In this document: positions 9,818 to 49,818 of the stretch, in pieces
How the letters are laid out: each line of letters opens with the position of its first letter
Numbering within the stretch: position 1 is the stretch's first letter
From: an uncultured bacterium
GTDB taxonomy: Bacteria > Planctomycetota > UBA1135 > GCA-002686595
NCBI GenBank assembly: GCA_943787795.1
Contig: CALSNU010000004.1
Coordinates: forward strand, 1-64,000
Direction: 5' to 3'
DNA: 64,000 nucleotides
Translations under genes and position numbers: made by a program
The notes under the pieces: model-generated
Told to the model about the DNA's origin: nothing
Databases searched by the model: none
The model's input: the letters and a program-made list of their open reading frames with translations, nothing else

Positions 9818-10771
9818 CTATCCCAGCCCGAACGGCAGCAGGTCAATCACATCTTTCCAATCGAGGAGCACGATTCCAATACCAAGGGCCAAGTACGGGC
9901 CAAAGGGCAGATATCGGCCCAGGACCCTCGCGGTACGAAGGGCCTGTGGGCGACCGCGATTCGGGAGCCTACGGCGTCGCTGCCGGGCCCGAACCACCAG
10001 GTACCAGCGCAGGATGTTGAGTACCCCCACTAGCGATCCAGCGAAGACGGCCACCTGGAGGGCCTGGAACGTCCCCAAGACCCCCACCAGACCCCCTCCC
10101 GCGGCCATCAGCTTCACGTCTCCGAAGCCCATGGCATCGGCGCCGGAGGCCCGCTTGCCGATCCAGCCGAGCCCGTAGAGGACGCCACCGCCCAGCGCCA
10201 TCCCGGCGAGGCACTCGGACAGCGAGGCGACCCCATCCACAGCCCCTCCCGGGGCGAGCGCCACGGCCACCAATCCAGACGAGTGCAGCGCCGGCAACAA
10301 GAAGGACACGATCGGGGCCGCCCACATCCCGCCGATGGAGACCTGGTCAGGGATCTCGTACCGCTCAAAGTCCACGAAGGTGGCCACCACCAGCGCCGCG
10401 AGCACGATCGAGTCGAGCACCAGGAAGCTCCACCCCTGCGAGGCCGCAGCGCGCCACGAGAGGTAGAAGACGGCCGCACCGATCAGCTCGACGACCGGAT
10501 ACCGCCAGTGGATCGGGGCGGCGCAGCCCAGGCAGCGCCCGCGCTGCATGAGCCACGAGAGGACAGGGAGGTTCTCGCGCCACCCGAGCTGCCGATCGCA
10601 CCCCGGGCAGTGGGACCGGGAGGGGCTCCATACGGAGGCGCCCTCCACCGGAAAGCGATGGATGCAGACGTTGAGGAAGGAGCCGACGAAGAGCCCCATC
10701 GCGACCCAGAAGAACCCGAACCCGGCGCTCTCAAGCGCGGGGAACGTGAGGACGAAACCAAGCCAGCTCAT
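9818..10771 (-). CDS. pilD: Prepilin peptidase / N-methyltransferase
   Basis: GSFLNVCIHR, CPGC...CLGC, RYPVVEL, FVD...IPD, MGFGDVKL, PFGPYL. Confidence 0.93.
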   Translation of the reverse strand: MSWLGFVLTFPALESAGFGFFWVAMGLFVGSFLNVCIHRFPVEGASVWSPSRSHCPGCDRQLGWRENLPVLSWLMQRGRCLGCAAPIHWRYPVVELIGAAVFYLSWRAAASQGWSFLVLDSIVLAALVVATFVDFERYEIPDQVSIGGMWAAPIVSFLLPALHSSGLVAVALAPGGAVDGVASLSECLAGMALGGGVLYGLGWIGKRASGADAMGFGDVKLMAAGGGLVGVLGTFQALQVAVFAGSLVGVLNILRWYLVVRARQRRRRLPNRGRPQALRTARVLGRYLPFGPYLALGIGIVLLDWKDVIDLLPFGLG

Positions 10772-12822
10772 CGTTCGGGGCTCCAGGCCAGGTCTACGCG
10801 GTCCACGAAGGGCGGGTCCCAGGACCCGCGGCGCGGATAGACGACGAGCTCCACCCTCATGCGGACCGTCGTTCCGGCGCCGGTGGTCGGCTCGACGACG
10901 AGGCCGGGCTGATCGAATCGAGCAGCCTGAGCGAGCCCCGCCTCTCCTTGCTGGAGGATGTCTGCGCGCAGGAACTGCACGCGGTAGTCGCCTCGACCGC
11001 CCCGGGAGCCCATGACCTCCGCCTCCTGCCAGAAGCGTGGGCGCTGCCCCTTCGGGACAGGAGAGGACAACGCCACGAAGGTGAGCGGGCGAGCGAGTGG
11101 ATTATGCAGGGGCTCATCGATCAGGAGAGGCGGGACCACATTGGGGCTGGCGTTGGGGTTGTACTGGTGCGGGAGTTCGAAGCCCCCGCCCTCCCCCAGC
11201 AACCAGAGCTGCCCATCGGCTGCCCGCGGCCTCCCCTTGCCGCGAATCCGGCCGCCTGCGACCAACAGCAGTGGGGTGTCCACATTGATTTCCCCCGTCA
11301 CGACGAGGTCTCCACCGGCGATGACCACGGTCCAGGGGTGATCCAATGCCGCCGCTCGCTTCAGCCACGTCGAGAGGGACTCTGACTGCCCTTGCGGAAT
11401 GAGGAGCTTGGCGGAGTCCCACATGCCAGGTGCCTCCGTCGCCGCCGCCCGTCGGATGAGGTCCCCCTCGAGATTCAGGCGCCCCTGCGCCCGCAGGACC
11501 ACGAGGCCCCCTCCGGTGAGGTGGGTCTCTCTCCCCTCGGGGATCGACAGCCTCGTCGCCTGGGTGTCCTTGCCGGCCTCCGACTCACCCAGCACCACGT
11601 CGCCCAATCGCCCGTCCCCAGCTGCCGCCGGATACCGGATATCAACACGCCCGTTCCCGACCCACCGTGCCGTACCGTCGCTCTGTCGGTCGAGCACCGG
11701 CACGAAGTCAAGATCGTCAGTGAAGTCGAAGGTGTAGCTGTCGCTTCCCTCCGGAGAGCGCATCCACTCCCGCGCCACGATGAAGCGGATGGGGCGCTGG
11801 GGTAGCCCCACCGAGGTCCCAGAGAAGTCGCGGATTCCACCGCCGAGCCCCGCCCTCAGGTGCAACTCGAACAGCGCCGGGCCGCGACCCGCGACGACCG
11901 GGAAGGGAGTCCGAGGATAGACACGGAGCCGAGCGCCGCCGGCCCCGTCTGCGCCCTTTGCCGTCCCGATCTCCCCCTCATTCGACACCACCTCGATCCT
12001 GGCGACCTCGATCGGCGGCATCAGCAGCGGCACGGCCTCAGAAGGGGGTGCAAGGCTCAGGCGGAACTCATAGTCCGCGGCCTTGATGGACCTGGGATCC
12101 ACCGGTTCAGAGCAAGAGAGTTGAAGCGGCTCATCCCAGGCCAGCGGGAGAGTATCCGATGACCCCGGGTCACCCGCTGCAACCCGGAGGACCGCCGCTC
12201 GGCCAGGTGACGCATCACGGAGCACCGCCGATCCTTCATCTCCTGGCACCTCCGTCCCCTCGACCGACACCGCGCGGAAGTCGAAGGACATCGATCGATC
12301 CAGCGCTGCCCCGCCAACCGAGCGCACAGCGCCGAGGAAGGGGAACCCCACGAGGGTCAATCGATAGCGCTGCCCGGGGACGAATCCCCCGTCCGAGAGC
12401 GCCTGGTTGCGCACACCCGCGGGCCGAAACCGAACGAGTCGCCCGTCGACCTCCCAGTCCCCCTGGGCCTCCAGCCCGGTCAACTCGCTGACGAGCCGCG
12501 CCGAGTCCCGGGTCACCGAGGTCGGATCCACGGCCTGATTGAACGTCAAGCGGATCGAGTCGTTCAGCAGGAGCAGCGGGCCGCCAGCCTCCGGGGACAG
12601 GGCCTCCAGCTGAAGCGCGACCTCATCGGGTGGACCAGGCAAGCAACCAGCGAGCCCCCAGGCGACGACGAGTACGACCTGCCGAAGGGAGAAGCACAGC
12701 CCCCGCGCGAGGCCCCCATCGAGTCCCAAGCGCGCACCTCTGGAACGAGACCCAGGGCGTTCCGTTGTGGACCGACCGCGCCTCCAGCGACACGGCCCCA
12801 CTGGTCTCTTGGAGAGGAGCAT
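10768..12822 (-). CDS. Ig-like-domain putative lipoprotein (start uncertain)
   Basis: GLAGC lipobox-like; LTFNQAVDPTSV...VRFRP Ig-like domain; GDGRLGDVVL; C-terminal RMRVEL...PFVDRVDLAW; stop overlaps pilD ATG. Confidence 0.75.
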   Translation of the reverse strand: MLLSKRPVGPCRWRRGRSTTERPGSRSRGARLGLDGGLARGLCFSLRQVVLVVAWGLAGCLPGPPDEVALQLEALSPEAGGPLLLLNDSIRLTFNQAVDPTSVTRDSARLVSELTGLEAQGDWEVDGRLVRFRPAGVRNQALSDGGFVPGQRYRLTLVGFPFLGAVRSVGGAALDRSMSFDFRAVSVEGTEVPGDEGSAVLRDASPGRAAVLRVAAGDPGSSDTLPLAWDEPLQLSCSEPVDPRSIKAADYEFRLSLAPPSEAVPLLMPPIEVARIEVVSNEGEIGTAKGADGAGGARLRVYPRTPFPVVAGRGPALFELHLRAGLGGGIRDFSGTSVGLPQRPIRFIVAREWMRSPEGSDSYTFDFTDDLDFVPVLDRQSDGTARWVGNGRVDIRYPAAAGDGRLGDVVLGESEAGKDTQATRLSIPEGRETHLTGGGLVVLRAQGRLNLEGDLIRRAAATEAPGMWDSAKLLIPQGQSESLSTWLKRAAALDHPWTVVIAGGDLVVTGEINVDTPLLLVAGGRIRGKGRPRAADGQLWLLGEGGGFELPHQYNPNASPNVVPPLLIDEPLHNPLARPLTFVALSSPVPKGQRPRFWQEAEVMGSRGGRGDYRVQFLRADILQQGEAGLAQAARFDQPGLVVEPTTGAGTTVRMRVELVVYPRRGSWDPPFVDRVDLAWSPER

Positions 12823-12838
12823 GGCTCGATCAAACGAA

Positions 12839-12876
12839 CGAGGCCCGCTGATCGCAAGCGCGATCAGCGGGCCTCG
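12839..12876 (-). terminator. Intrinsic terminator inside the lipoprotein cluster
   Basis: Perfect 17-bp stem cgaggcccgctgatcgc/gcgatcagcgggcctcg, 4-nt loop, followed on minus strand by TTCGTTT. Confidence 0.75.
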
Positions 12877-12901
12877 ACGCACTAAGTGCCGAACGGAAGG
12901 A

Positions 12902-15900
12902 TCAGAACTTGTACTGGACCCGGAGGTAGTCCAGCGCGGGCCGCGGCGCAGCGAGATCCACACCAGAGTTGTCCACGTCCAGGTTGAACACCGCCTTGAA
13001 CCGGATGAAGCCCCAGTCTGCGCTGTTCAAGGCCGAGATGTTCGTCGCGAACGCCGAGAGGTCTCCGTTGCTGAACGAGTCGGTCGGGATCGCGCTCGGC
13101 TCCCCCGTCAGAGGGTTCTCGATCGTGGCGTCGAAGGAAATCTCCACCGAGGTGTTCAGCGGGAAGGCGTCCTCGATGCCTGCCGTACGGAGGCGGTAGA
13201 AGAACGGGACCACCTCGACCTGGACGGTGCCGTTCCCGACACCGAGCGCCACGAGCGTGTCCTCGAGGGTCGTGCCCCGGGGATCAACGACCAGCGACAG
13301 CGCGTCAGCGACGCCGTCGTAGGACCCCGACTGAACGATGAACTCGGTGGCCGCGGGGCCCGCACCGTCTCGGATGCGCACGGCGAACTCTCGCGTCAGC
13401 GCCGGGTTGAGCTTGTAGATGTCATCGAAGCCTGCGCCGGGGAACGTGAACGTCGCCGTGGCACCATCCACCGCCGGCAGCGCGCCGCCAGCGGGGATCG
13501 CCGTGTAGGGGAAGATCGCCGGCAGCTCTGCCGCGACCGTGCCGCTGCGAGGCACCGAGCCAGTGCCCAGGTCGGTGCCGCTGAAGAGCAGTTCAACCTG
13601 CTCTGACACACCACCGGGGTTCAGGCGGGCGAGGCCCAGCGGGATCCAGACCGAGAAGGCCTCGGAGCGCGCACTGAAGAAGGGGATCAGCACGTCCGCG
13701 GGCTGAGAGGGGCTGGTCCAGCCAATGGGCGGGGGAGCCATCGAGCGCGTCGGGTCAAGGTCGATCCCGTACGTTCCGGTGGCGTTGGGGAATTGCAGCT
13801 GGGTCGCAGGGTCGGACACGTGGAGCTGGATGATCCCGGGACCACCGTCACCCCCGCCGCCGATGACCGTGCCTTCGGGCGGCTGGATCACCGCACAGGC
13901 GTCGATGTTGTTGCACTGCAGCCAGATGTTCTGGTTCTGCGGCGGGATCGTCGTGTTGCCCTCGAAGTGCGCGATCGGGATCGCGTCCTGGCGCCACTGA
14001 GTGGAGCCGTTCTCGTTGGCGCCGCAGCGGCTGTCCTTGCCGCAGCCACCCTGGCCGCCAAGAGCGCGGAGCGGACGAGTCTCGTGGATGGGGACCGCGC
14101 CGTCGTCGTCGTAGAAGGCTCCGACCGAGGTCGCAGTCGCCTGCGACTCGATGACGATGGCACCCGCGCTGGAGAGCACGATGTGGCCGCCGGAACCGCC
14201 ACCGGAACCGCCGCCGATCCGGTCGAAGAAGATCGAGTTCTCGCCGCCACCGCCGTCGCCGCCGTTGGCCGAGAGCTCGCCGTCGCCGAGGAGCTCGATG
14301 TTGCCAATGGCGAGCACGAGGAGACCGCCGGCACCGCCGCCGCCGCCGGACCCCTTCTCGTCACCCGTGGGGTTGAAGGGGGTCTGAGGGAAGGTCGACG
14401 TGCGTGAAGCGTCGCCACCGCCACCGCCGCCGGACCCAGCGATCACCCCGGTGAGCTCACCGAGGATCTGCTCGCCATTGGAGGTCAGCAGGGTGCCAAG
14501 GAAGTCGTTGTCGGACCGCTCATCGGTGAACGGCGACGGACCGAGGCTCCCGCCTTGGGCCGGACCCGATCCGGAAACGGCGCCGGTAGCGTCGGGGCAA
14601 CCCGTGAAGCCCGGCTCAGCGTCCATACCCACCAGGGTCTGGCATCGAATGAGGCCGGTCGGGGCTCCTGTCTGAACGTCGAATCGGATGTCCTTTCCGG
14701 TGACACCGCCGCCGCCGCCGGCACCGCGCCGGTTCTCGATGGAGCAGGTTCCGGGGGGCGCGAAGGTGGTCTCTCCACCCCCGCCGCCCAGGTTCGGGAT
14801 GCCGAAGTAGCCTTCGCCGGGGGCACCCTGCGGAGTCGACTGGGAGGTCAGGAACGAGGCGGCGCCCCCGGCGCCACCACCGGCCTGGCCCTCGGCACCT
14901 TCCTCGGGCTGGTTGGTGGTGTTCAGCGTGCCGACACCTGCGTTGTCTCCGCCGTCGAGCGAGACCTCGCCACGAATCGTGACGGAGCCAGTGGCGAGAA
15001 TGGTGCAGGTGTTCGGACCCTGGATCACGAGTCGGCCACCGGCCTCAACAACGAGGTCGTTGACGTCCACGACGCCGTTGAACACCGGCTGGGTGAAGAA
15101 GGGCTCGCCGTTCGGACCCCCGATGATCTGGTCACCGGAAGTGTTCAGGAAAATGGTCTCGCCGGTACGGATGTACCAGTCGAAGTCGCCGCCCGGGCCG
15201 CCAGTACCGTCGAAGTCGAAGGAGGCCGCGAGGACCCCCTCATTCTGAGGAGCCGACCAGCCAGCCCGGGGGAACGCGGAGGCGATCGCCGTGTCCTCCA
15301 GCGAACCCGTGCTCGTTCCGGGCAGGCTGAAGGGAACGAGGATCTCGTCGCTTCCATCATCCTCCGTACCCCCGGCGCCGCCGGGGTTGGCGAGGGTCGA
15401 GGTCATCCGCGCAAAGCTGGTTTGAGTCGCCTGGACGCTGTCGCCTGTGAGGTCCTGGAACCCCTCCTTGACCACGACGCGGAGCGACGCGTCCTGGGGT
15501 ACCACGCCACCCGGCGTGACCCGCAGGGAGGAGCCCGTCTGGGTGCAGTTATCGATCAGCGCCACCGCCGAAGGCACCCTGGACCAGTTCACTCCGTTGT
15601 AGCTGTACTGCATCTCAATCAGCTGCGAGTTGACGTTGCTCGTCCCCGCGAACACAGGCTGATTGAAGCGCAGCACGACGGAGAACTGCTGGGAGACGTC
15701 GCTGTAGAGGTTCAGCGGCACGTCGCTGGCAATTCCGCCGAGCTGCGTCAGCGGATCGAACTGAAAGTACTCGGTCGTCCCGTCGCCGAACTCGACGGCG
15801 GACGCGGAGAGCGAGTCGAGGGGCTCACCGTTCAAGCCTCGAACCCGGACCTGCGGCGGGCCTGCGACGACGTCGACGAAGAGCACCAGCGGGTCGGTGG

Positions 15901-16375
15901 ACTCCGGCGTCGTGAAGCCGATGTTGAGGCCAACGCCGAGGGCAGCACCCGTCGTACTGAGGACCGTCACCCCTGTCGGATCCGAGACCACGCGGAGGCT
16001 GTACTCGCGTCCTTGCTTGAGACCCCCATTCGAGTTCAGGTTGTCCGTCGGGCAGACCGGCTGAAAGCGCACCGTGCGGAGATCCGACGCGGTGAACGTC
16101 CCGATCGCCGGGCCGCCCTGTGTGTCGACGATCTGAATCGTGCTCAGAGAGACCGTGGAGAAGTCCACGTCCTGGTTGAACTCGATGTCGATGGCGCGGT
16201 TCAGCTGCCAGATCGACCCGTTGAGCACGTTGGAACTCACCACGGCGAAGTCGGACCCGGGGTTGGTGCCTGCACCGCCCCCTGAGTCGCTGCCGCTGCC
16301 GCTGCATGCGACGAGGGTGAGAGCCCCGAGGGAGGCAGTTAGAAAGGCCTGAAGTCGTCGTTGCGGTCGCGGCAT
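12902..16375 (-). CDS. Giant glycine-rich Ig-like lipoprotein (~1157 aa)
   Basis: MPRPQRRLQAFLTASLGALTLVAC lipobox; IEFNQDVDFSTV and LRFNQPV Ig-like domains; long Gly-rich tract; C-terminal FIRFKAVF...PALDYLRVQYKF. Confidence 0.85.
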   Translation of the reverse strand: MPRPQRRLQAFLTASLGALTLVACSGSGSDSGGGAGTNPGSDFAVVSSNVLNGSIWQLNRAIDIEFNQDVDFSTVSLSTIQIVDTQGGPAIGTFTASDLRTVRFQPVCPTDNLNSNGGLKQGREYSLRVVSDPTGVTVLSTTGAALGVGLNIGFTTPESTDPLVLFVDVVAGPPQVRVRGLNGEPLDSLSASAVEFGDGTTEYFQFDPLTQLGGIASDVPLNLYSDVSQQFSVVLRFNQPVFAGTSNVNSQLIEMQYSYNGVNWSRVPSAVALIDNCTQTGSSLRVTPGGVVPQDASLRVVVKEGFQDLTGDSVQATQTSFARMTSTLANPGGAGGTEDDGSDEILVPFSLPGTSTGSLEDTAIASAFPRAGWSAPQNEGVLAASFDFDGTGGPGGDFDWYIRTGETIFLNTSGDQIIGGPNGEPFFTQPVFNGVVDVNDLVVEAGGRLVIQGPNTCTILATGSVTIRGEVSLDGGDNAGVGTLNTTNQPEEGAEGQAGGGAGGAASFLTSQSTPQGAPGEGYFGIPNLGGGGGETTFAPPGTCSIENRRGAGGGGGVTGKDIRFDVQTGAPTGLIRCQTLVGMDAEPGFTGCPDATGAVSGSGPAQGGSLGPSPFTDERSDNDFLGTLLTSNGEQILGELTGVIAGSGGGGGGDASRTSTFPQTPFNPTGDEKGSGGGGGAGGLLVLAIGNIELLGDGELSANGGDGGGGENSIFFDRIGGGSGGGSGGHIVLSSAGAIVIESQATATSVGAFYDDDGAVPIHETRPLRALGGQGGCGKDSRCGANENGSTQWRQDAIPIAHFEGNTTIPPQNQNIWLQCNNIDACAVIQPPEGTVIGGGGDGGPGIIQLHVSDPATQLQFPNATGTYGIDLDPTRSMAPPPIGWTSPSQPADVLIPFFSARSEAFSVWIPLGLARLNPGGVSEQVELLFSGTDLGTGSVPRSGTVAAELPAIFPYTAIPAGGALPAVDGATATFTFPGAGFDDIYKLNPALTREFAVRIRDGAGPAATEFIVQSGSYDGVADALSLVVDPRGTTLEDTLVALGVGNGTVQVEVVPFFYRLRTAGIEDAFPLNTSVEISFDATIENPLTGEPSAIPTDSFSNGDLSAFATNISALNSADWGFIRFKAVFNLDVDNSGVDLAAPRPALDYLRVQYKF

Positions 16376-16523
16376 GGTGGAGATGTTCGCTTGGGGGGTG
16401 TTGAACATTCGGAAGGGAGCAGGCGCGTTCGGCGGCGAGGGGGCGCCGCGCTGAGACGTCAAATTGGGTTCGATGGACTCGGCGTGGAACGCTCGAGAGA
16501 GAGTGGGTTTGAGCTCGAGGAAC

Positions 16524-19500
16524 CTAGTCCTGCGACCAGGTCATCGCGAAGGCGGACAGCTCTGGTGTCTGCACCGTCACGGGGTTGCCCACGAAGGTCA
16601 GGCGCACCTGGTAAAAGCGAGCGTCATTGATCTGACTCACCTCGCTCTTCCAGTCGTCCGAGGCTCCCAGGAAGCTGATCCCCGGGTTCATGGCGTTGGT
16701 GTCGTGGTTGATCGACCCGGCGATGGCTGCCGTATCGACCTCGTTGTAGTAATCGCCGTAGAGGTCGAGCGAGAAGCCGTCCTCGGTGTAATCGATGATC
16801 CCGTTCCCGAGGCCGCCATCATCCGCATCGTTGTCCACCCGATACAGACCACTATTGTCGTAGGTGAACGACTGAGCCCCGCGGAAGTTGACCGTGATCT
16901 CCGTCCCCGGCGGCTGGGCGTTGGCGTCAGGCTCGAGGATCGGCGGGTTGTAGACCCGGGTGCTGAAGTTGGCCTCCGAGGGGATGATCGACTCGGACCA
17001 GATCGAGTAAACCTGGCTCACTCGCGTGATGTAGTCGATGCCGCCGAGGTGGACCGTGTTGTCACGACCGAAGGTCGGCGCCCCGGGGTTGGGGAGCGAG
17101 CCGGGGTTGAACCCGCCGTTGGAGATGCTCTGCGAGTCCGGGTTGACGAAGACCGTCGTTCCGGCCTGGTTCACGCCGCCCGTGCTGAACGCCCGGAAGT
17201 ACGGGCGCGAGGACGAGTTCACCGCCAGCGCAAGGACCCACGCGTTGAGGCCAATGGCCTCGGGATCCGGGTAGGTCCTGAACTCCATCAGGAGCGGTAG
17301 ACCAGAGGTCTGGACCTGCCCCGGGCGGTAGTAAGGGACGAGCGGCGCTTCGATGCCCAGCGCCAGGAGGTAGGCCTGCGGCTCCACGCCCCCGTTGGAG
17401 ATGCCCGCGCGGTCCCGGATCGTTGTGTCCCGCCAGGTGTAGTACGTGAAGTCCTCCGGAGCGATTCCGCGGTTCATCGGGAACGGCAGCAGGCTCGCGC
17501 CCGTGGGGGTCGTGAACAGGTTGCCGGAGTCCACCGTGTAGCCGCGCTCACGCGGGTGAACGGTGATATTCGGAGCCCCAGGGAGGACGTTGCTGTCGTA
17601 CTGCGGCCGCAGACCGGAGTTCTGGAACTGGGGGAAGAGGCTGGACGGGTCGATGATCTCGTCCGGAGCGTAGCGGCAGTGCGAAAGCTTGATCTCGAAC
17701 TGGGCGAACGCGTCAGGGGTGATCACCCCGCCGGACGGCTGCCAGTTCAGGCCCTCAACATCGATGTTGAGGTTCTGGGGATCGGTCAGCGAGAAGCCCG
17801 CGTCGCAGTAGCGCCAAAGCGTCTGCATCTTCGAGCCGAAGTTCGAGAGAGGCGTGACGACCCCCTGAGGGAACTGGGTCATCTGCTGCACGATCGCCTG
17901 GCTCTCGTTGATCGGAACGAAGCTGCGGATCACGGGGCGAGGCCGGATCAGCTGGCGGCCGCTGTCCACAAGGAACTGGCCGCCCCACTCCGGCTTGTTG
18001 CCAAAGGGGGGCTCCTCGTCAATGGAAGTGAAGCGACTCACGCGCCCGCCGGTGAGCTGGGACGATTGTGCCGGGGCGACCACGAGGTCCACGGCCGGCA
18101 CCGTCTCGACGATGTTGCCCGCGAGGTCACGCGGCGGGAAGTCATCCCCGACGTTGGCCAACGTGAGGAAGTAGCTCTCAGAGACTCCCTCCTCGTGCGC
18201 CAGGGGCTGGCCGGGGACGAAGGTCACGCGTCGCAAATCAGCGGATTGCCCCACGCTGCCGACCACGTAATCGGAGGTCGGCAGGTTCCCCACGGACGGG
18301 ATCAGCTCACGGGTGAGCGTGAGGGAGTCGAAGGCCGTGAGCGACAGGGGATCCATCGGCTCGCTGAACCGGAAGGTCATCTGAGCGCCTGTGGAGATCC
18401 CGAAGCCAGGGTCCTCGGGGAACCCAACGGCCTGCGGGAGGATCTGCGTGTAGCACTGGGGACGCTGAGCGTCGGGGAGCGGGTCGAACGCCGTCTGGTA
18501 GCTCGCCGGCACCGCGCCGAAGAGCTCCCAGTCGCCAGGGCCGCTCCAAGCTGCGGGATAGCTCAGCAGTTGGACCTGGACGCCAGACACAAGGCCGCCA
18601 ACCGGGGGCGGCGCATCAGCGGCCACCTGGGCAAAGACGCCGGACTGGTCAATCACGTCCCCCGGCTGGGGCGGCGACCCGCACAGGGAGGATTGGAAGA
18701 CGATTTGCGGGATCACGAATGAGGTGCTCTCCGGACCGCCAACCTGGGTCGGAGCCATCGGAACGTCAATGGGCGTCGACCCCACGACAACCGGCGCAAG
18801 GCTGTCCCGCAGGAAGCCGTTGAACGGATCGCTGATCAGATCGGGCCGGCCCCCCGAGCGGAATGCGCGGGTGACAGGGCGGGTCGACGACGAGTTGTCC
18901 ACCGGGCCGTTGTTGGAGGTCCCCAGCTGGTGATCGGTGATGTTGGAGAGCACGGTGGTGATCCCCTGCGCAGCGTTCGTTCGCGTCGGGATCCGTAGCT
19001 GGGCGTTCGCGTCGCCGAGCACAAGGCTCGGCGGCAGTCCGATCCCGTTGATCACCAGCGGCGGATTCGACGCGAACGCTTCCAGCTCGCTGATCGTCAG
19101 GTCGATCACGACGCGCGTCGGGAACAGCTGGCCGCCGGGGCCGATGTCACCGTAGAACGCGGACGGGAAGATCCGAGCCTCGAACGGGAACGCCGGCGGG
19201 AGGCCCGTGGCGATCTGGATCGAGTTCCGATTGATGGTGTTGGGGTCGATCAGATCGTCAAACGTCAGCACGACCGCGGAGTTCCGCGGGAGCATCGAGA
19301 AGACCCCCGATGTGTTGAGGTCCTGGACTTGGATCAGGTCGAGGCCCTCACCAGCGGCCTGCAGAAGGGCGACGAATTCCTCGAGGCCCTCCCGCGTGGA
19401 GACGTCTCTCAGGACGGTGAGGTTCTCCTGTCCGGTGATCGCGTTGATCCCGATCTCGTAGTCCACCTCGTCAGAGGCCAGAGACTGAGGAATCACGAAG

Positions 19501-19787
19501 TCGTCCCCCATGGGAACCCGCAAGCCGTTCTCGTCCAGGCCAAACAGCTGCACGAGGCGGCCAAACCTGGTGGAGACAAGCCTGACCTCGGTGGCGCTGC
19601 CGCCCGAGTTGGTGTCGGTGAAGTAGAACGTGCCGTCCGTGATCCCCTGGCCGCCCCCAGGCGTGGACTCAGCGGAGGAGCCGCCCCCACATGCGGTGGC
19701 CCCCAAACCCAGGATCAGGCCCGCCAGGAATCGGGGGGCTCGACTGGTTCGGGGCGAGTTGTTGGGCTGATGAGTGGTCATCGGCAT
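16524..19787 (-). CDS. Giant Ig-like lipoprotein (1087 aa)
   Basis: LGLGATAC lipobox-like; LTFDDLIDPNTI and FRFSEPMDPLSL...RRVTFVP...RDLAGN Ig-like domains; C-terminal RFYQVRLTF...TPELSAFAMTW. Confidence 0.85.
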   Translation of the reverse strand: MPMTTHQPNNSPRTSRAPRFLAGLILGLGATACGGGSSAESTPGGGQGITDGTFYFTDTNSGGSATEVRLVSTRFGRLVQLFGLDENGLRVPMGDDFVIPQSLASDEVDYEIGINAITGQENLTVLRDVSTREGLEEFVALLQAAGEGLDLIQVQDLNTSGVFSMLPRNSAVVLTFDDLIDPNTINRNSIQIATGLPPAFPFEARIFPSAFYGDIGPGGQLFPTRVVIDLTISELEAFASNPPLVINGIGLPPSLVLGDANAQLRIPTRTNAAQGITTVLSNITDHQLGTSNNGPVDNSSSTRPVTRAFRSGGRPDLISDPFNGFLRDSLAPVVVGSTPIDVPMAPTQVGGPESTSFVIPQIVFQSSLCGSPPQPGDVIDQSGVFAQVAADAPPPVGGLVSGVQVQLLSYPAAWSGPGDWELFGAVPASYQTAFDPLPDAQRPQCYTQILPQAVGFPEDPGFGISTGAQMTFRFSEPMDPLSLTAFDSLTLTRELIPSVGNLPTSDYVVGSVGQSADLRRVTFVPGQPLAHEEGVSESYFLTLANVGDDFPPRDLAGNIVETVPAVDLVVAPAQSSQLTGGRVSRFTSIDEEPPFGNKPEWGGQFLVDSGRQLIRPRPVIRSFVPINESQAIVQQMTQFPQGVVTPLSNFGSKMQTLWRYCDAGFSLTDPQNLNIDVEGLNWQPSGGVITPDAFAQFEIKLSHCRYAPDEIIDPSSLFPQFQNSGLRPQYDSNVLPGAPNITVHPRERGYTVDSGNLFTTPTGASLLPFPMNRGIAPEDFTYYTWRDTTIRDRAGISNGGVEPQAYLLALGIEAPLVPYYRPGQVQTSGLPLLMEFRTYPDPEAIGLNAWVLALAVNSSSRPYFRAFSTGGVNQAGTTVFVNPDSQSISNGGFNPGSLPNPGAPTFGRDNTVHLGGIDYITRVSQVYSIWSESIIPSEANFSTRVYNPPILEPDANAQPPGTEITVNFRGAQSFTYDNSGLYRVDNDADDGGLGNGIIDYTEDGFSLDLYGDYYNEVDTAAIAGSINHDTNAMNPGISFLGASDDWKSEVSQINDARFYQVRLTFVGNPVTVQTPELSAFAMTWSQD

Positions 19788-20290: not shown

Positions 20291-21754
20291 TCAGTGCCCC
20301 GTCAGGCTGACTGCTGGTCGGAAGCCCGCCTCCACGGCGGCCTCTTCGTTCCCGAAGAACACGAGGTGCTCGGGGAGGATCAGACGGATGGTCCCCGCTT
20401 CGGGCGCGTGGAAGATCCTGGAGCGGGAACAGCCGATGACGGCGTGGGACAGCTCCCGGGTGCAATAGGCGCACGCCACGCGCAGCGGGTCGCGCTCAAG
20501 GATCCGAAAGCGCGGCTCCGCATGCCGGGTCTCCGTGCGCGAGATGCACGACGGGTTCGGGCAGGGATTGGGACCCACGGGGACCCCGTAGGACTCGCGC
20601 ATTTCGGCCGGCTCACCCGCGGACTCGAGAGGCACTCGCCCAAGGAGCCAGGCCAGGATCGCCATCCGGATCGGGACGCCACGCGCCGCCTGCTTGAAGT
20701 AGATGCTCCGGGGGTCCGCGTCGACCTCGTCGCTGATCTCATCTCGCCTCGGCAGGGGGTGCATCACGACCGCGTCCCGCAGGGACTCGGCGGCCATGGC
20801 GCGCTTCTCAAGTCGAAGGTAGGCCGTCTCGGACAGCTCGGTGCCCGAGTGCCGCTCGGTCTGAGGCCGGGTCATGTAGACCGCATCCACGCTCTGCACC
20901 TCCCACCCGCGGGCATCCGTGAAGAGCGAGAGCTGGTGGGGCTTCTGAGGGGTGAGGTACACCGCGTCGCTGTTGGAGGCCAGGTTGCCGAGCCGTCGCG
21001 CATCCGCCCGCATGGGTTCGACCTGGAACTCCTCGTGGAGCCGCTCCACCACGTAGTCAGGGAGCTCAAGGCCAGCCTGAGGAACGCAGACAATATTGGC
21101 CCCGAACCGGGCCAGGGCGTACGCGAAGGAGTGGACCGTCCGGCTGTACTTGAGGTCACCCGCGAGGACCACGTCCAGACCCTCGATCTTGCCGCGCTCC
21201 ACGTGGAGGTTGTAGAGATCGCAGAGCGTCTGGGTCGGGTGTTCGAGGCTTCCGTCGCCGGCGTTGATGACCGGGACCGGTGAGTAGCGTGCCGCGAGCC
21301 TCGCGGCCCCCTCGCTGGGATGGCGGAGGACGATCACGTCCGCGTACCCGCCCCCCACGACCCGGATCGTGTCCGCCAAGGACTCCCCCTTGACGACGCT
21401 TGAGCTCGTCATCTCCGCGGCGGTCAGGACGCCGCCGCCAAGCCGGAGCATGGCTGACTCGAAGGACAGCCGCGTCCGGGTAGAGGGCTCATAGAAGAGG
21501 CTCGCCGAGATGAACCCCGGACAGGTATCAGCGAACGCCCGAGGGTCCGCTGCGAAGCGGTCGGCCAGCCGGAAGAGCGCGTGCATCTCAGCGAGCGAGA
21601 CGTCGTCAATCGAGACGAGATGCCTCGCCGTGGGCGGGCCCATCCCCGCGCTCGGGGGCCCCCCCGCGCTCGGGGCCAGCGCCCCACCGGGGGCGCGGTC
21701 GCCCTCCGCCTGTTCGGGTTCGCTGCTGCCGTCCGCCGCTGTGTCCTGGGTCAT
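20291..21754 (-). CDS. pyrB: Aspartate carbamoyltransferase catalytic chain fused to PyrI-like Zn module and Ada-like domain
   Basis: FYEPSTRTRLSF, KGESLADT, INAGDG..HPTQ, GDLKYSRTVHS, MHPLPR; C-terminal CPNPSCIS...CAYC then IFH...LVFFGNEEAAVEAGFRP. Confidence 0.9.
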   Translation of the reverse strand: MTQDTAADGSSEPEQAEGDRAPGGALAPSAGGPPSAGMGPPTARHLVSIDDVSLAEMHALFRLADRFAADPRAFADTCPGFISASLFYEPSTRTRLSFESAMLRLGGGVLTAAEMTSSSVVKGESLADTIRVVGGGYADVIVLRHPSEGAARLAARYSPVPVINAGDGSLEHPTQTLCDLYNLHVERGKIEGLDVVLAGDLKYSRTVHSFAYALARFGANIVCVPQAGLELPDYVVERLHEEFQVEPMRADARRLGNLASNSDAVYLTPQKPHQLSLFTDARGWEVQSVDAVYMTRPQTERHSGTELSETAYLRLEKRAMAAESLRDAVVMHPLPRRDEISDEVDADPRSIYFKQAARGVPIRMAILAWLLGRVPLESAGEPAEMRESYGVPVGPNPCPNPSCISRTETRHAEPRFRILERDPLRVACAYCTRELSHAVIGCSRSRIFHAPEAGTIRLILPEHLVFFGNEEAAVEAGFRPAVSLTGH

Positions 21755-21813
21755 TCGCGCCATCTCCTCGAGCAGGGTCCCGTGGAGTAGACCTTGCGCC
21801 CGCGCCTGAGAAG

Positions 21814-22986
21814 CTAGAGCGATGCGAGCAGAGAAGCGAGCGTCGAACCGTCGACGGTCTCGGCCGTCGCGAGATCGCACAGTCGCTCCAGGAGCTCCGG
21901 CTCGAACGGAACGGCCCGCCCAGCAACCCAGCCGGGGTGGCCGCCGAGCCCGAGGTGCTCGATAAACAGGTTCCCGATGGTCTTCCTCGCGTGCGTCGGG
22001 TCCTCAAGGGCAGAGATCCCGAGGGGCCCCCAGCCCGCGGGGCTGATGCCGCGCCGCTCTGCGGCTCGGCTCTCCAGGTGGAGGCGTCGCCCCGCAAGTC
22101 CCGGACCGCCTGGCGCCGCGGCCACTCGCTCCGAGCCCAAAGGTGAGAGTTCCAGCACGAGATCCGCGCGCGAGGCGACCCCGCGGGCGAGGCGCTGCCC
22201 TTCGGCCTCCACGGACGCAGCTGGGTCCCCCATGGCGACGGGGATCGCCAGGTCTCGCTCCCCCGCCGTATCGACCAGAATCACGGGCCAGCCACCGAGC
22301 TCCGCCGGAGCCCCGAGCGCGTCGCGCGTGGTGCCCGGACGCGCGGTCACGGCCGCTTGCTCCTCACCGAGCAGCGCATTGAAGAGGGTCGACTTACCGG
22401 CGTTCACGGGCCCGACGATCGCCACCACGGTGGGCGTCCACAGGCGGACGCAGCGGCGCCCCTCCGCGGCCAGCGCTGAGAGTCGCTGCCGTCGCTCGGC
22501 TGGCTCCGCGTCGACCAGCTCAGCCAGCTCTTCGCGCAGGGCTCCCGCAGCCTGGTCGAGGAGCACCCGGGCCCCGATCGCTGACGCCGTCCATGCCGCC
22601 GCGCGCTCCGCCCGCTCCTCCAGCGAGGGCGAACCTCCATCGTGGGTAAGAGCTCGGCCGCCTCCTCTCCCCGGAAGAGGGTCAACCTCACCCGGCTGAT
22701 CGCTGAGCAGCCCGCTGACCGCGGACACGATGGAGGGGCTCCCGTGGGTGTGAACCTCGACCCACTCGCTCCGGCCGACCAGGAGGGCCTCGTCCAGGGG
22801 AGGTTCATCCGGAGGTGAACCCGGCTCACGGAGAACGGCGAGCCGAACCTCCCCCGGTTCGGGGATGCCAGCCCTCGACAGCCCACGGAGCTTCGCGAGG
22901 GCCCTGGCCCCTCGGATGGAGAGGACCGCCACGCCGCCCGACCCGGAGGGGGTGAGCAGTTCGACGCTGGATCCGGCGGCGCTCAC
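21814..22986 (-). CDS. MnmE/TrmE-like GTPase, divergent and C-terminally shortened
   Basis: LTPSGSGGVAVLSIRG, VEVHTHGS, GPVNAGKS, PGTTRD, DTAG; lacks NKxD and terminal CxGK; GTG start overlaps coaX stop. Confidence 0.8.
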   Translation of the reverse strand: MSAAGSSVELLTPSGSGGVAVLSIRGARALAKLRGLSRAGIPEPGEVRLAVLREPGSPPDEPPLDEALLVGRSEWVEVHTHGSPSIVSAVSGLLSDQPGEVDPLPGRGGGRALTHDGGSPSLEERAERAAAWTASAIGARVLLDQAAGALREELAELVDAEPAERRQRLSALAAEGRRCVRLWTPTVVAIVGPVNAGKSTLFNALLGEEQAAVTARPGTTRDALGAPAELGGWPVILVDTAGERDLAIPVAMGDPAASVEAEGQRLARGVASRADLVLELSPLGSERVAAAPGGPGLAGRRLHLESRAAERRGISPAGWGPLGISALEDPTHARKTIGNLFIEHLGLGGHPGWVAGRAVPFEPELLERLCDLATAETVDGSTLASLLASL

Positions 22987-23783
22987 TGGAAGCACCGCCT
23001 CGCCGCCGCTGCGAGGCCGACGTGGACGAGGAGTTCGACCTCGGTCGGTCGCCGCCCGAGACCTGCCGCTACCCCGTCGAGGGCGAAGCCGCGAGCGCCG
23101 CCGGTGACAAACCCCTCGACCCGATCGGGCCCGCCGAAGGCCTCGTTCGCAATCGACCGACAGAGGGTCTCCACGGCACCCCGAAAGCCCACGACCACCC
23201 CTGCCCGCAGCGCCTCTTCGGTGGAGCGCCCAAGCGCGGGTGTATCGACTCGGATCGAAAAGTCAGGGAGCCGGGCGCCTGCGCGCGTGAGGCCCTCCGA
23301 GAGGGTTCCCGGGCCAGGGGCGATGGCGCCGCCGAGGAACGCGCCCCCTTCGGCGGTGGGCAGCACCGCGTCCACGGTCACCGCCGTCCCCGCGTCTACG
23401 ACGAGGACGCCCGCCGGACGGGGACCTCGGCCAAGCTGTTCCAGGGCTCCGCGGGCCCCGTAGAGGCGGTCCCGCCCGCAGGTCTCGGGATGGTCGAGGC
23501 GAAGCTCGAGCCCCGCGTCAGGGTTGACCGCGACGGTGAGCCCCAGACCCTCCAAGAGACCTCGCAGGCGGTGCTCCTCCGAGAGGGTTCCCACCGCGCT
23601 GACCGCGGCGAGGCGAGGGCGCTCCCCGCACGCCGCAGCGCGCTCGAGGCAGCCCCCCAGAATGGAGGCGTCCAGCTCCCCGACCTTGCAGGCGGCGAGC
23701 CGCTCCGCGCCGCCGGGACCGACACGGGCCACCGAGGCGCTGGAGTTGCCCAGGTCCAGGGTCAGCACCGCTTCTCCCGTCAC
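22983..23783 (-). CDS. coaX: Type III pantothenate kinase
   Basis: LDLGNS, GRDR, VVDAGTAVTVD, FLGGAIAPG, TGG motifs. Confidence 0.9.
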   Translation of the reverse strand: MTGEAVLTLDLGNSSASVARVGPGGAERLAACKVGELDASILGGCLERAAACGERPRLAAVSAVGTLSEEHRLRGLLEGLGLTVAVNPDAGLELRLDHPETCGRDRLYGARGALEQLGRGPRPAGVLVVDAGTAVTVDAVLPTAEGGAFLGGAIAPGPGTLSEGLTRAGARLPDFSIRVDTPALGRSTEEALRAGVVVGFRGAVETLCRSIANEAFGGPDRVEGFVTGGARGFALDGVAAGLGRRPTEVELLVHVGLAAAARRCFQ

Positions 23784-24778
23784 TCGCCGGGGCTGTGATA
23801 GACGATGGTCTCCACGCGCCCCAGTCGAAGGACCTCGACGGTCCAGACCGAGTAGCGCTCCGAGTTCGCCTTGGCGAACCCGATCGCCTCCTGCTGACTC
23901 CCAACAGGCGTCCCGTTGATCGCGATGACCACGTCTCCGGACTGAGCGCCATGCCGGCTGACAATCGAACCCTCTCGCACCTCGGTGATCTCCACGCCCG
24001 CGCGCTTCCCGTCCTTCATGTAGGTCCGGGTCTTGACGTCGTTCGAGAGGATGGACTGGTAGTCACGCGCGAGAGCATCCGCGTCCTCGGTCCCCAGGTA
24101 GAACTGACCGTTGCGCTGCTCTGTCCTGGTCGGCAGGTCGGGCTCCTGCTGGCCCCCTTTGGCGATCAGCGAGACCTTCCGGCGGGTCCGGAATTCCGCC
24201 CCGTCCTTCAGGGACTCGATCAGGTCCGCCCCGGTCCGGGAGCTGGGAGTGAGGAACTCTCGCTCCCGCCCCTCGTCCTCGAAGGAGAACTCCACGCCGG
24301 CCGAGGTGATTCGATAGACGCTGAACTCTCCTTCTGGCGACATCGCCGTGGATCCGACCGCGAACCAGCGGTCCCTCGGGTCGGCCTGGGGGGCTGCGAG
24401 CCGCACGAGGCAGAGGGACTCACCCGGGTCGCGCTCGTCAACGAGCACCATCAGCACCTCGAGCACCTCGGAGACCGGCGTGAGCCGGACGATCACGTCG
24501 TCGGTCCCGCTGCTCACGGCCTCCTCGACGACCACGGGGAGCGCGCCTGTCCAGTTGGAGAACACGATCGCCGGCTTGATGTCATCGTCGTAGTTCAGCG
24601 CAGCCGCTCGCGGAGCGGCCGGCGACTTGACGTTGTTGAGCACCGTGTCCGCCCGCTTCAGGTCGAAGTAGGTCCGGTCTCGCCCGTCGGTGTAGTAGTC
24701 GTACGCGACGTACGCCACCCCGGCAAGGAGCACTGTGGAGGCCAGGTAAGAGACCGACTTGACGATGCCGACGTTCAT
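23780..24778 (-). CDS. GspC-like TM-HR-PDZ protein, copy 1
   Basis: N-terminal TM helix, beta-rich middle domain, C-terminal PDZ (GVEITEVREGSIVSRHGAQSGDVVIAING). Confidence 0.75.
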   Translation of the reverse strand: MNVGIVKSVSYLASTVLLAGVAYVAYDYYTDGRDRTYFDLKRADTVLNNVKSPAAPRAAALNYDDDIKPAIVFSNWTGALPVVVEEAVSSGTDDVIVRLTPVSEVLEVLMVLVDERDPGESLCLVRLAAPQADPRDRWFAVGSTAMSPEGEFSVYRITSAGVEFSFEDEGREREFLTPSSRTGADLIESLKDGAEFRTRRKVSLIAKGGQQEPDLPTRTEQRNGQFYLGTEDADALARDYQSILSNDVKTRTYMKDGKRAGVEITEVREGSIVSRHGAQSGDVVIAINGTPVGSQQEAIGFAKANSERYSVWTVEVLRLGRVETIVYHSPGE

Positions 24779-24822
24779 GGGACAGGAGGCGCGTTGTGGG
24801 TGGACCCCGACGCGCTGCGCAT

Positions 24823-25821
24823 TCAGTCGTTGGAGCTGTGATAGATGATCGTCTCGATTCGGCCGAGACGCAGGACCTCGACCTCCCAGACCGAATAACG
24901 CTCTGAGTTGTTCTTGGCGAAGGAGATCGCCTCCTGCTGACTGTTGACGGGGTTCCCGTTGATCGAGATCACCACGTCCCCAGATTGGGCCCCATGGCGG
25001 GACGCGATCGACCCCTCGCGGACCTCCGTCAATTCAACACCGGAGCGCTTGCCGTCGACGTAGCGGGTCTTCGTCTTCACATCCTGGGAGAGGATCTGCT
25101 GGTACCCCTCGGCGAACTGCTTGGCGTCGTCAGATCCGATGTAGAACTGGCCGTTACGCCGCTCCGTCATCAGCGACGGCGTCCCGTCCGCGGACCCCGC
25201 GGATCCCGACCCAACGAGGGTCCGCCGCACGATGCGCTCCCCGGGGCCAAGGCTCCGGATCAGGTCCGCACCGTTGGACCGGAGGCTGAGCGAGACCACC
25301 TCCGACGGGCGCCCCGCGTCGGCGAACGAGAACTCCACGCCGTCCGCGAGGATGTTCAGAACGGAGACCTGGTCGTTGGGCGCCGGCAGGGAGGCGCCCA
25401 CCGAGAAGAGCTGCTCTGCGGGCGAGATGCTGCTATCCGAGAACCTGAGGGAGCAGTAGGAGTCCCCCGGATCCCGAGGATCCGAGAGCACCATGATCAC
25501 CTCAAGGATGTCCTCCACCGGGATGACGGGCGCCGGGGTGTCCACGGACTCGACCGCCTCGGCGACTTCGGGAGGAGGGGGCGGCTTGCCGGTCCAATCA
25601 AACCCGACGACCGTCGGCATGATGTCCTTCGCGAAGTCCAGGGCGACCGGAGCCGGCGCCTTGGGGGCCTCTACGCCGTTCAGGACCCCATACGCGTGCT
25701 CACCGTCGAAGTAGGTGACCTGGTGATCGTTCTCGTAGTAGTCGTACCCCGAATAGGCCATCGCGCTCACGCAGGCGAACGACGACAGATAAGCGAGGGA
25801 CTTGATCGTGGGGACATTCAT
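24823..25821 (-). CDS. GspC-like TM-HR-PDZ protein, copy 2
   Basis: Tandem paralog of 23780..24778 (MNVPTIKSLAYL; RNGQFY; near-identical PDZ ending TIIYHS). Confidence 0.75.
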   Translation of the reverse strand: MNVPTIKSLAYLSSFACVSAMAYSGYDYYENDHQVTYFDGEHAYGVLNGVEAPKAPAPVALDFAKDIMPTVVGFDWTGKPPPPPEVAEAVESVDTPAPVIPVEDILEVIMVLSDPRDPGDSYCSLRFSDSSISPAEQLFSVGASLPAPNDQVSVLNILADGVEFSFADAGRPSEVVSLSLRSNGADLIRSLGPGERIVRRTLVGSGSAGSADGTPSLMTERRNGQFYIGSDDAKQFAEGYQQILSQDVKTKTRYVDGKRSGVELTEVREGSIASRHGAQSGDVVISINGNPVNSQQEAISFAKNNSERYSVWEVEVLRLGRIETIIYHSSND

Positions 25822-25923
25822 GGCTCGGTCGGGGTCGCCCCCCGCGCTGAAGCAGGTTAGCAAGCAGACGCCGCGCCACGGCGATCCTTCCCAGGGACAC
25901 CGATTTTGCCCTCTCCCAGAGGA

Positions 25924-48804: not shown

Positions 48805-49818
48805 ATGACCAGGACCACTCAGAGTCTGATCCGCCTCCGCGACCTGTCGGAGTCCCGCCTCGAGGACATCCTCGACCTCGCCGAACGATTCAAGGCCGGC
48901 TCCCAGCGCGCCGAGCTCGCCGGGAAGTCCGTGGGCTTCCTCTTCTTCCGCGGGTCCCTGCGAACCCGTACCTCCTTCGAGGTCGCGGTCCAGCAGCTGG
49001 GCGGCCGCGGCGTCCACCTCTCGGCAGGCTCCGACTTCTGGGAGCTGGAAGCCCGAGACGGGGTGGTCATGGACGGGACCGCCCCCGAGCACGTCCGGGA
49101 CGCCGCCGCCGTGATGTCGACCTACTGTGACGCCCTGGCCATCCGCCCGAAGCCTGCGGGGAAGGCCTGGGAAGTCGACCGGCGGGATGAGGGCATCCGC
49201 GCCTGGGCCCAGAACAGCCAGGTGCCCGTGATCAACATGGAGAGCGCGCTGTGGCACCCGCTGCAGGTCCTCGCCGACCTCTTGACCCTGCGCGAGACCT
49301 TCGGCAAGGACATCAAGGGGCGCCGGCTGGCCATCGTCTGGACGCCCTCCCCCACGCCCGCCGGCCCCGCCGTCGTGCACTCGCTCCTGCACGCGGCGCT
49401 GCGCGCCGGCGCGAGCGTCTCCCTCGCCCACCCGGCGGGCTATGAGCTCGACGGCGAGGTGCTCTCCGAGGCCCGGCAGATCGCCGCCGATGCGGAGACG
49501 TCCTTCGAGGAGGTCTCGTCCGCCGACGCGGCAGCCCGAGGCGCGGACGTGATCTACGCGCGCTCTTGGGGAGCGCTCGAGAGCTACGGTCAGCCGACCA
49601 TGGCGGCCCACCGGGTCGCGCAAAGCCGCGACTGGCTCGTGGACGAGAGCCTGATGAAGCTCGGCGATGACGCCCGCCTCATGCACCCCATGCCGGTGCG
49701 CCGCAACCTCGAGGTCACCGACGAGGTCCTCGACGGGCCGCGCAGCCTGGTCTACCGACAGGCGGCGAACAGGCTTCCCACGCAAAAGGGCCTCCTCTCG
49801 CTCCTGCTCCGCGGCTGA
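48805..49818 (+). CDS. argF: N-acyl(acetyl/succinyl)ornithine carbamoyltransferase
   Basis: FFRGSLRTRTSF, WELE..DGVVMDG..PEH, INMESALWHPLQ, YARSWG, HPMPVRRNLEV. Confidence 0.85.
   Translation: MTRTTQSLIRLRDLSESRLEDILDLAERFKAGSQRAELAGKSVGFLFFRGSLRTRTSFEVAVQQLGGRGVHLSAGSDFWELEARDGVVMDGTAPEHVRDAAAVMSTYCDALAIRPKPAGKAWEVDRRDEGIRAWAQNSQVPVINMESALWHPLQVLADLLTLRETFGKDIKGRRLAIVWTPSPTPAGPAVVHSLLHAALRAGASVSLAHPAGYELDGEVLSEARQIAADAETSFEEVSSADAAARGADVIYARSWGALESYGQPTMAAHRVAQSRDWLVDESLMKLGDDARLMHPMPVRRNLEVTDEVLDGPRSLVYRQAANRLPTQKGLLSLLLRG

Follow-up and report, generated by a model that had tools for sequence, protein, structure and literature searches.

A conserved motif of the beta-clamp-binding type in a planctomycete aspartate carbamoyltransferase fused to a PyrI zinc domain and an Ada-like domain

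Aspartate carbamoyltransferase (ATCase) is a textbook allosteric enzyme. Two described ATCases stand closest to the protein reported here: the class B enzyme of E. coli and archaea (PyrB6-PyrI6) and the fused PyrB-PyrI of Thermotoga maritima (NF009916; PMC6022934, available in part). The beta-clamp binding motif is given as Q-aliphatic-x-[LM]-[FL], with the consensus QL[SD]LF, in a 2024 review whose clamp partners, as tabulated in its accessible portion, are replication and repair proteins only (PMC11139829). In PolA2, QxxLF is located in an unstructured loop, according to the available text of PMC12926913. The nearest precedent for a clamp that handles metabolic enzymes is PCNA, which scaffolds ENO1 and 6PGD (PMC9937922, accessible sections), and the molecular link between bacterial replication and metabolism is called largely unknown in the available part of PMC10638427.

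We analysed a window of 64,000 nt (positions 1 to 64,000 of contig CALSNU010000004.1, assembly GCA_943787795.1) from an uncultured planctomycete. A fused ATCase gene of 487 codons occupies 20291..21754 on the minus strand, within an open frame at 20291-21880 (-) whose C-terminus holds the peptides quoted in an earlier, sequence-only reading of this DNA. The gene likely starts at ATG 21754, with GAGGAG ahead of it, because the closest homologs start MTQ; ATG 21763 is a second possible start. Residue numbers below are those of this fused protein (P0001). The gene was the sole pyrB found in the assembly, which is 85% complete, and a profile search of the same assembly for PyrR (NF003549) found none. 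Two further OTCace_N matches in the assembly were judged from their sequences to be an ArgF-like gene adjoining an aminotransferase and an AOTCase-like gene. The AOTCase-like gene, the third transcarbamylase gene, is at 48805-49818 (+) of the window; it carries SLRT and HPMP motifs, lies immediately ahead of dnaE and is presumably of the acetylornithine type. Partial coverage of the fused gene came from contigs of four marine metatranscriptome runs that belong to a single study; contigs of this kind do not reveal whether, from which strand or how strongly a gene is transcribed.

The conserved upstream neighbours of the fusion are an mnmE-like GTPase gene and coaX, encoding type III pantothenate kinase (together 21814..23783, minus strand). 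They mark the locus and are probably not functional partners of the fused ATCase. The mnmE/trmE-like gene itself (21814-22995, minus strand) is short, at 393 aa at most, and its TrmE_N match is weak. Upstream of coaX, after a PilT-type ATPase, two tandem paralogs at 23780-25863 (-) encode proteins with a hydrophobic N-terminal segment and a C-terminal PDZ domain; we take them to be GspC-like, and they are kept in relatives, including at the loci with catalytically dead copies described below. Downstream of the fusion lie three successive long ORFs whose products look like lipoproteins and contain Big_5 (Ig-like) domains (10768-19787, minus strand; 731, 1186 and 1087 aa), and the 1087-aa gene comes after the fusion in many relatives.

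The catalytic chain consists of a carbamoyl-phosphate domain (21206..21625, minus strand; STRT, K121, R143, H171, Q174) and an aspartate domain interrupted by an insertion (20636..21205, minus strand; R204, R295, Q297, HPLP), which gave Pfam scores on the ORF of 146 bits for OTCace_N and 80 bits for OTCace. We take the active-site residues to be K84, R105, H134, Q137, R167, R229 and Q231 in E. coli numbers. Conservation was assessed in an alignment of 85 Planctomycetota rows, 25-95% identical to the fused protein (A6), from which near-duplicates, loci that are partial or have a broken frame, and a single sequence containing ambiguous bases were excluded; the homolog alignment amounts to about 63 effective sequences. 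The full active-site set (STRT, Lys, Arg, His, Gln, Arg, Arg, Gln, HPLP) was kept in all 73 A6 rows that bear STRT. The nearest solved chains were archaeal class B catalytic subunits (E 1e-70), those of M. jannaschii (2rgw) and P. abyssi (1ml4). A monomer structure model with a mean pLDDT of 92.3 and a pTM of 0.92 superseded an earlier one built from 30 close rows (mean pLDDT 72) and aligned with the CAD ATC domain over 298 residues (Z 37.8, rmsd 1.8). Fold searches returned transcarbamylase and Rossmann-type folds only and barely covered the tail.

Counting from STRT and KGE, R103 and D138 presumably correspond to E. coli Arg65 and Asp100. The E. coli pair stabilises the catalytic trimer (PMC6056424, available in part). 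Because the inter-chain pair is invariant in the planctomycete proteins, including all 12 dead rows of A6, the chain would be expected to trimerise like other ATCases and so to display three copies of the clamp-type motif described below.

The sequence-only reading had described a PyrB chain fused to the zinc half of PyrI, with the allosteric domain missing, and profile searches agreed on both counts. PyrI_C (PF02748) scored 37.7 bits on the ORF against a cut-off of 23.4, and the four cysteines of the zinc domain (20441..20563, minus strand; C397, C402, C427, C430) were invariant in all 37 aligned tails (alignment A5). The tail profile also matched the PyrI chains of solved ATCases (2yww, 1d09_B). 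The PyrI allosteric domain, PF01948, was missing from the ORF, did not turn up in the genome that carries this ORF (85% complete) and was present in 0 of 26 genomes with active fusions. The fused protein resembles a class B catalytic chain but, lacking the allosteric domain, belongs neither to class B nor to the Thermotoga-type fusions.

The remainder of the tail is a Cys-less domain resembling Ada_N and sunset domains (20312..20440, minus strand), recognised by profile similarity and in the structure model. It is a real domain as modelled, folding with good confidence (pLDDT 93-96) into a hairpin-helix-strand-helix arrangement. The earlier proposal of an Ada-like domain that had lost most of its cysteines stood as to similarity and cysteine loss, but the scores remained below the family cut-offs: Ada_Zn_binding (PF02805) gave 14.5 bits on the ORF (E 0.036; 14.5-16.4 bits across tests) against a cut-off of 23, and NCBIfam sunset NF051437 gave 22 bits on the fused protein against a cut-off of 27. 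At E<=0.1, PyrI_C matched 37, Ada_Zn_binding 20 and NF051437 24 of the 37 aligned tails, with a best NF051437 match of E 2.6e-6. No CxxxC or CxxC pair occurs in the Ada-like part of the fused protein, and the zinc/methyl-acceptor cysteines of Ada are missing.

The tail could in principle stand in for the allosteric domain as a module that binds DNA or RNA or senses a ligand, with the inserted loop described below binding a non-clamp partner or nothing important. Such a module would fit the Ada_N/sunset similarity, the retention of H448 and of the EA and GF residues even in dead copies, the presence of sunset-type domains on ribosomal proteins (going by family names) and the existence of homologs that have the tail without the motif. 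We regard this explanation as improbable, given the scores below both cut-offs, the lost zinc ligands and a net charge over residues 438-478 that is near neutral (averaging +0.6 for active copies and +1.3 for dead ones); moreover, it leaves the most strongly conserved feature of the protein unexplained. For ADA_N-like domains with decayed zinc sites, Cys-less ones included, the ECOD paper (PMC12353581) gives the function as undetermined in its available text. The suggestion of the sequence-only reading that the tail is a possible nucleic-acid-binding module found no direct support: the tail is only weakly basic and lacks both the Ada cysteines and above-threshold scores. The stronger link to DNA metabolism is a clamp-type motif that this reading did not mention.

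This motif lies in an insertion of about 27 residues in the aspartate domain (about 20891..20968, minus strand), made up of a second DAVYxT-type strand and an unstructured loop. The insertion sits just ahead of the strand carrying R295, and alignments to solved ATCases break there. The loop contains QLSLF (20921..20935, minus strand; Q273-F277), which corresponds to the published beta-clamp consensus. Q-x-x-L-[FL] occurred in 82 of the 85 A6 rows and exact QL[SD]LF in 29; the three exceptions were QNTFF, QLALY and the locus L075. Column entropies in A6 were 0.09, 0.18 and 0.28 bits for Q, L and F, against 1.97 and 2.21 bits at motif positions 2 and 3 and 1.6-3.4 bits in the flanks. As read from the alignment, this pattern shows the clamp-type motif to be under selection. 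Position 2 frequently holds a residue that is not aliphatic (K, G, Q, H, N), and such rows fall outside the stricter definition of the review. In the six-frame open frames of at least 100 aa from the same genome (5.7 million residues), exact QL[SD]LF occurred four times, and the other three matches appear, from their sequence context, to fall on the opposite strand or in another frame of longer reading frames that look like the genuine genes; relaxed QxxLF was common, with 218 matches in the same set. In the monomer model the motif block was coil with a pLDDT of 58, the least confident internal stretch, and in the first model residues 272-279 fell below 50.

The same genome encodes clamp-type motifs in a DinB-like protein (QKTLF) and in DnaE (QSSMF). 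The clamp-pocket residues, taken from the list in the available text of PMC11139829 (here R151, T171, L176, P242, P346, M360 and P361), did not vary among 29 DnaN sequences from the order, which have Arg at the position of E. coli His175. DnaN was not found in four motif-bearing genomes of family f108, although dnaA is present in them. These assemblies (G405, G409, G419, G422) are 84-92% complete and lack gyrB as well. Because gyrB, which adjoins dnaN in three relatives, is missing from the same four genomes, the absence probably reflects a gap that the four assemblies have in common, in the dnaN-gyrB-tRNA block.

The architecture, called unusual in the sequence-only reading, proved to be conserved: a profile running from the insert to the tail matched 76 of 81 genomes of the order at E<1e-57, and one of the five non-matching genomes holds a plain PyrB without the insert. 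Searching 401 genomes of the phylum with the tail gave matches in 95, in many cases to ordinary PyrI; 30 returned loci and 40 fetched stretches were then examined. Named relatives were mostly Planctomycetota, among them the cultured Saltatorellus ferox Poly30, which carries QLSLF (locus L118).

The wider family was assessed by a profile search of 50%-identity representatives, of which 77 among the best 150 span both the loop and the zinc domain. The few named clusters among these 150 included Anaerolineales, Dehalococcoidia/SAR202, Binataceae and Ca. Acidoferrales. Within the best 150, 23 of the 49 representatives whose tail runs to at least 38 residues carried the strict motif Q-x-x-[LM]-[FL], as did 1 of the 28 whose tail is shorter, counts that include Planctomycetota-type members. 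The other 26 long-tail representatives, some of them named Chloroflexota, Binataceae or Acidoferrales, had no strict motif. Near forms (QLALI, QLSLY) and decayed forms (QLSMS, QLAMH, QLTMV, SLTFL, TYPLW) were both seen among the wider homologs. Motif and Ada-like tail thus tend to occur together, yet not every tail bearer has the motif, and this finding weighs most heavily against a clamp role that is required. Short fusions of PyrB with the zinc domain only, lacking tail and motif, were common among the best 150 representatives.

Several individual loci depart from the common layout. L075 (1363-2643, genome G194) encodes PyrB, the insertion and the zinc domain behind mnmE, with neither motif nor Ada-like tail, and is a natural control for both. 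L138 (3290-4429, an Oscillospiraceae record) has PyrB and the zinc domain alone, with no insertion. Four proteins (P0048, P0059, P0075, P0043) are forms of about 650 aa with an additional C-terminal domain of about 190 residues, one of them being named phosphoribosyltransferase family; three of the four carry the strict motif, as QLALF, QQTLF and QMALF.

The co-occurrence of motif and tail, and the loss of both in L075, would also be expected of an internal latch, in which the loop packs against another subunit's Ada-like or zinc domain and holds or regulates the trimer or hexamer, its likeness to a clamp motif being due to chance. Three further observations suit a latch. The protein has no PyrI allosteric domain with which to form regulatory dimers. 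Wider homologs, often including those without the strict motif, retain an upstream P-x-x-P-H and hydrophobic residues in the pattern P-x-x-P-H-Q-L-x-hydrophobic, with the fifth motif position free. Finally, the loop is inserted beside the strand of the 240s loop, which follows it, and the 240s-loop region is a known inter-trimer contact of ATCases. We nevertheless consider a latch unlikely. The loop was not docked on its own tail in the pTM 0.92 model, a monomer model that is blind to docking between subunits; an invariant Gln, free positions 2 and 3 and exact QL[SD]LF are more than a generic hydrophobic latch needs; and a latch gives no reason for keeping a dead oligomer beside canonical pyrBI.

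Such dead copies, which lack the active-site residues, were found in 15 genomes of three other families (f37, f96, f57), two of them partial (L025, L041) and judged by their visible residues. The 12 represented in A6 have lost STRT, K121, H171, Q174, R295, Q297 and HPLP, yet keep Q273 and L276 (12/12), F277 (11/12), the four zinc cysteines and H448 (12/12). All 15 genomes also have a canonical pyrB and the PyrI allosteric domain. In a quick tree the dead copies formed one long branch apart from canonical pyrB; this tree, whose branches are long, was built on the N-terminal 201 columns without 19 loci (near-duplicates, same-place repeats and a fragment), and it supports that grouping and no order of events. 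We count the dead copies as a single event rather than 15. They come after coaX at 10 of 15 loci, while active copies lie behind coaX and mnmE. The mnmE-like gene is missing between coaX and the dead copies.

Dead copies could be neutral leftovers if the fusion were simply an unregulated ATCase with vestigial add-ons, and the decay of the motif in many wider homologs, together with the existence of PyrB plus zinc-only fusions without tail or motif, would accord with this. The dead copies themselves make it very improbable. At 34-79% mutual identity (12 A6 rows) they have stayed open and kept motif, cysteines and tail despite the lost active site. The frame is broken in just one of the 15 (L023/L068, G312:C29), where two overlapping open frames meet between the aspartate and zinc domains, ahead of the latter, through a frameshift, a split or an assembly error. 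Since all three add-ons persist in dead copies, the comparison points to a likely second job on the replication clamp, and it speaks for the fold itself serving as a scaffold or sensor, more than for a plain activation of catalysis.

On balance, we think it somewhat more likely than not that the fused ATCase docks on DnaN via its QLSLF loop, where its role would be non-catalytic. In this arrangement the zinc domain would pack on its own catalytic chain and hold the Ada-like domain, which may contribute a weak contact to DNA or to the clamp. Docking on DNA-loaded clamps could then couple pyrimidine supply with replication and replace NTP feedback. More tentatively, and a little short of even confidence, the ATCase trimer might be a direct clamp partner that brings three clamp motifs, a zinc domain and an Ada-like domain to replication forks and links nucleotide supply to replication without NTP feedback, a role that would have split off into a dead pseudo-ATCase in three families once ordinary pyrBI took over catalysis. 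Channelling would be a weak reason for such docking, since many steps separate ATCase from the dNTPs. Should the clamp not be the partner, the family still offers an ATCase that lacks its allosteric domain and a pseudo-ATCase whose conservation calls for an explanation.

In the literature searched, mainly open-access main texts, we found no fusion of PyrB with a zinc domain and a Cys-less Ada-like domain and no bacterial counterpart of the scaffolding of metabolic enzymes by PCNA. Within the same literature, nothing relevant linked ATCase or pyrB to the clamp, DnaN, a zinc-domain fusion or planctomycetes. The new element is a clamp-type QLSLF within the insertion of the aspartate domain, which gives a metabolic enzyme that carries a conserved clamp motif and has split naturally into an enzyme and a putative dead scaffold.

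Compared with known systems, the fusion shares with class B ATCase the catalytic chain, the active-site residues and the four-Cys zinc domain, and differs in being one polypeptide without an allosteric domain, with an extra strand, a motif loop and an Ada-like tail. Like the T. maritima enzyme it joins catalytic and regulatory parts in one chain, but the T. maritima protein holds the PF01948 allosteric domain (as a control search confirmed) and the planctomycete fusion does not; NF009916 matched 1 of 37 tails, at E 0.012. With the ADA_N-like and sunset domains (the ECOD X-group of PMC12353581; NF051437) the tail has in common its C-terminal position, profile similarity and a zinc site that has decayed, as it also has in RplD and ArfC according to the available text, whereas its scores are below cut-off and the word carbamoyltransferase is absent from the main text of that paper. 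The motif sequence, its conservation pattern and its place in an unstructured loop of a folded domain are shared with clamp partners that carry an internal QxxLF loop (DnaE, MutS, Hda, PolA2), from which the fusion differs in that its carrier is a metabolic enzyme, with clamp binding a prediction. The proposed role resembles that of PCNA with ENO1 and 6PGD in that a sliding clamp binds metabolic enzymes by a short motif, while the PCNA system, as far as described in the accessible sections of PMC9937922, is eukaryotic and cytosolic and uses the APIM motif.
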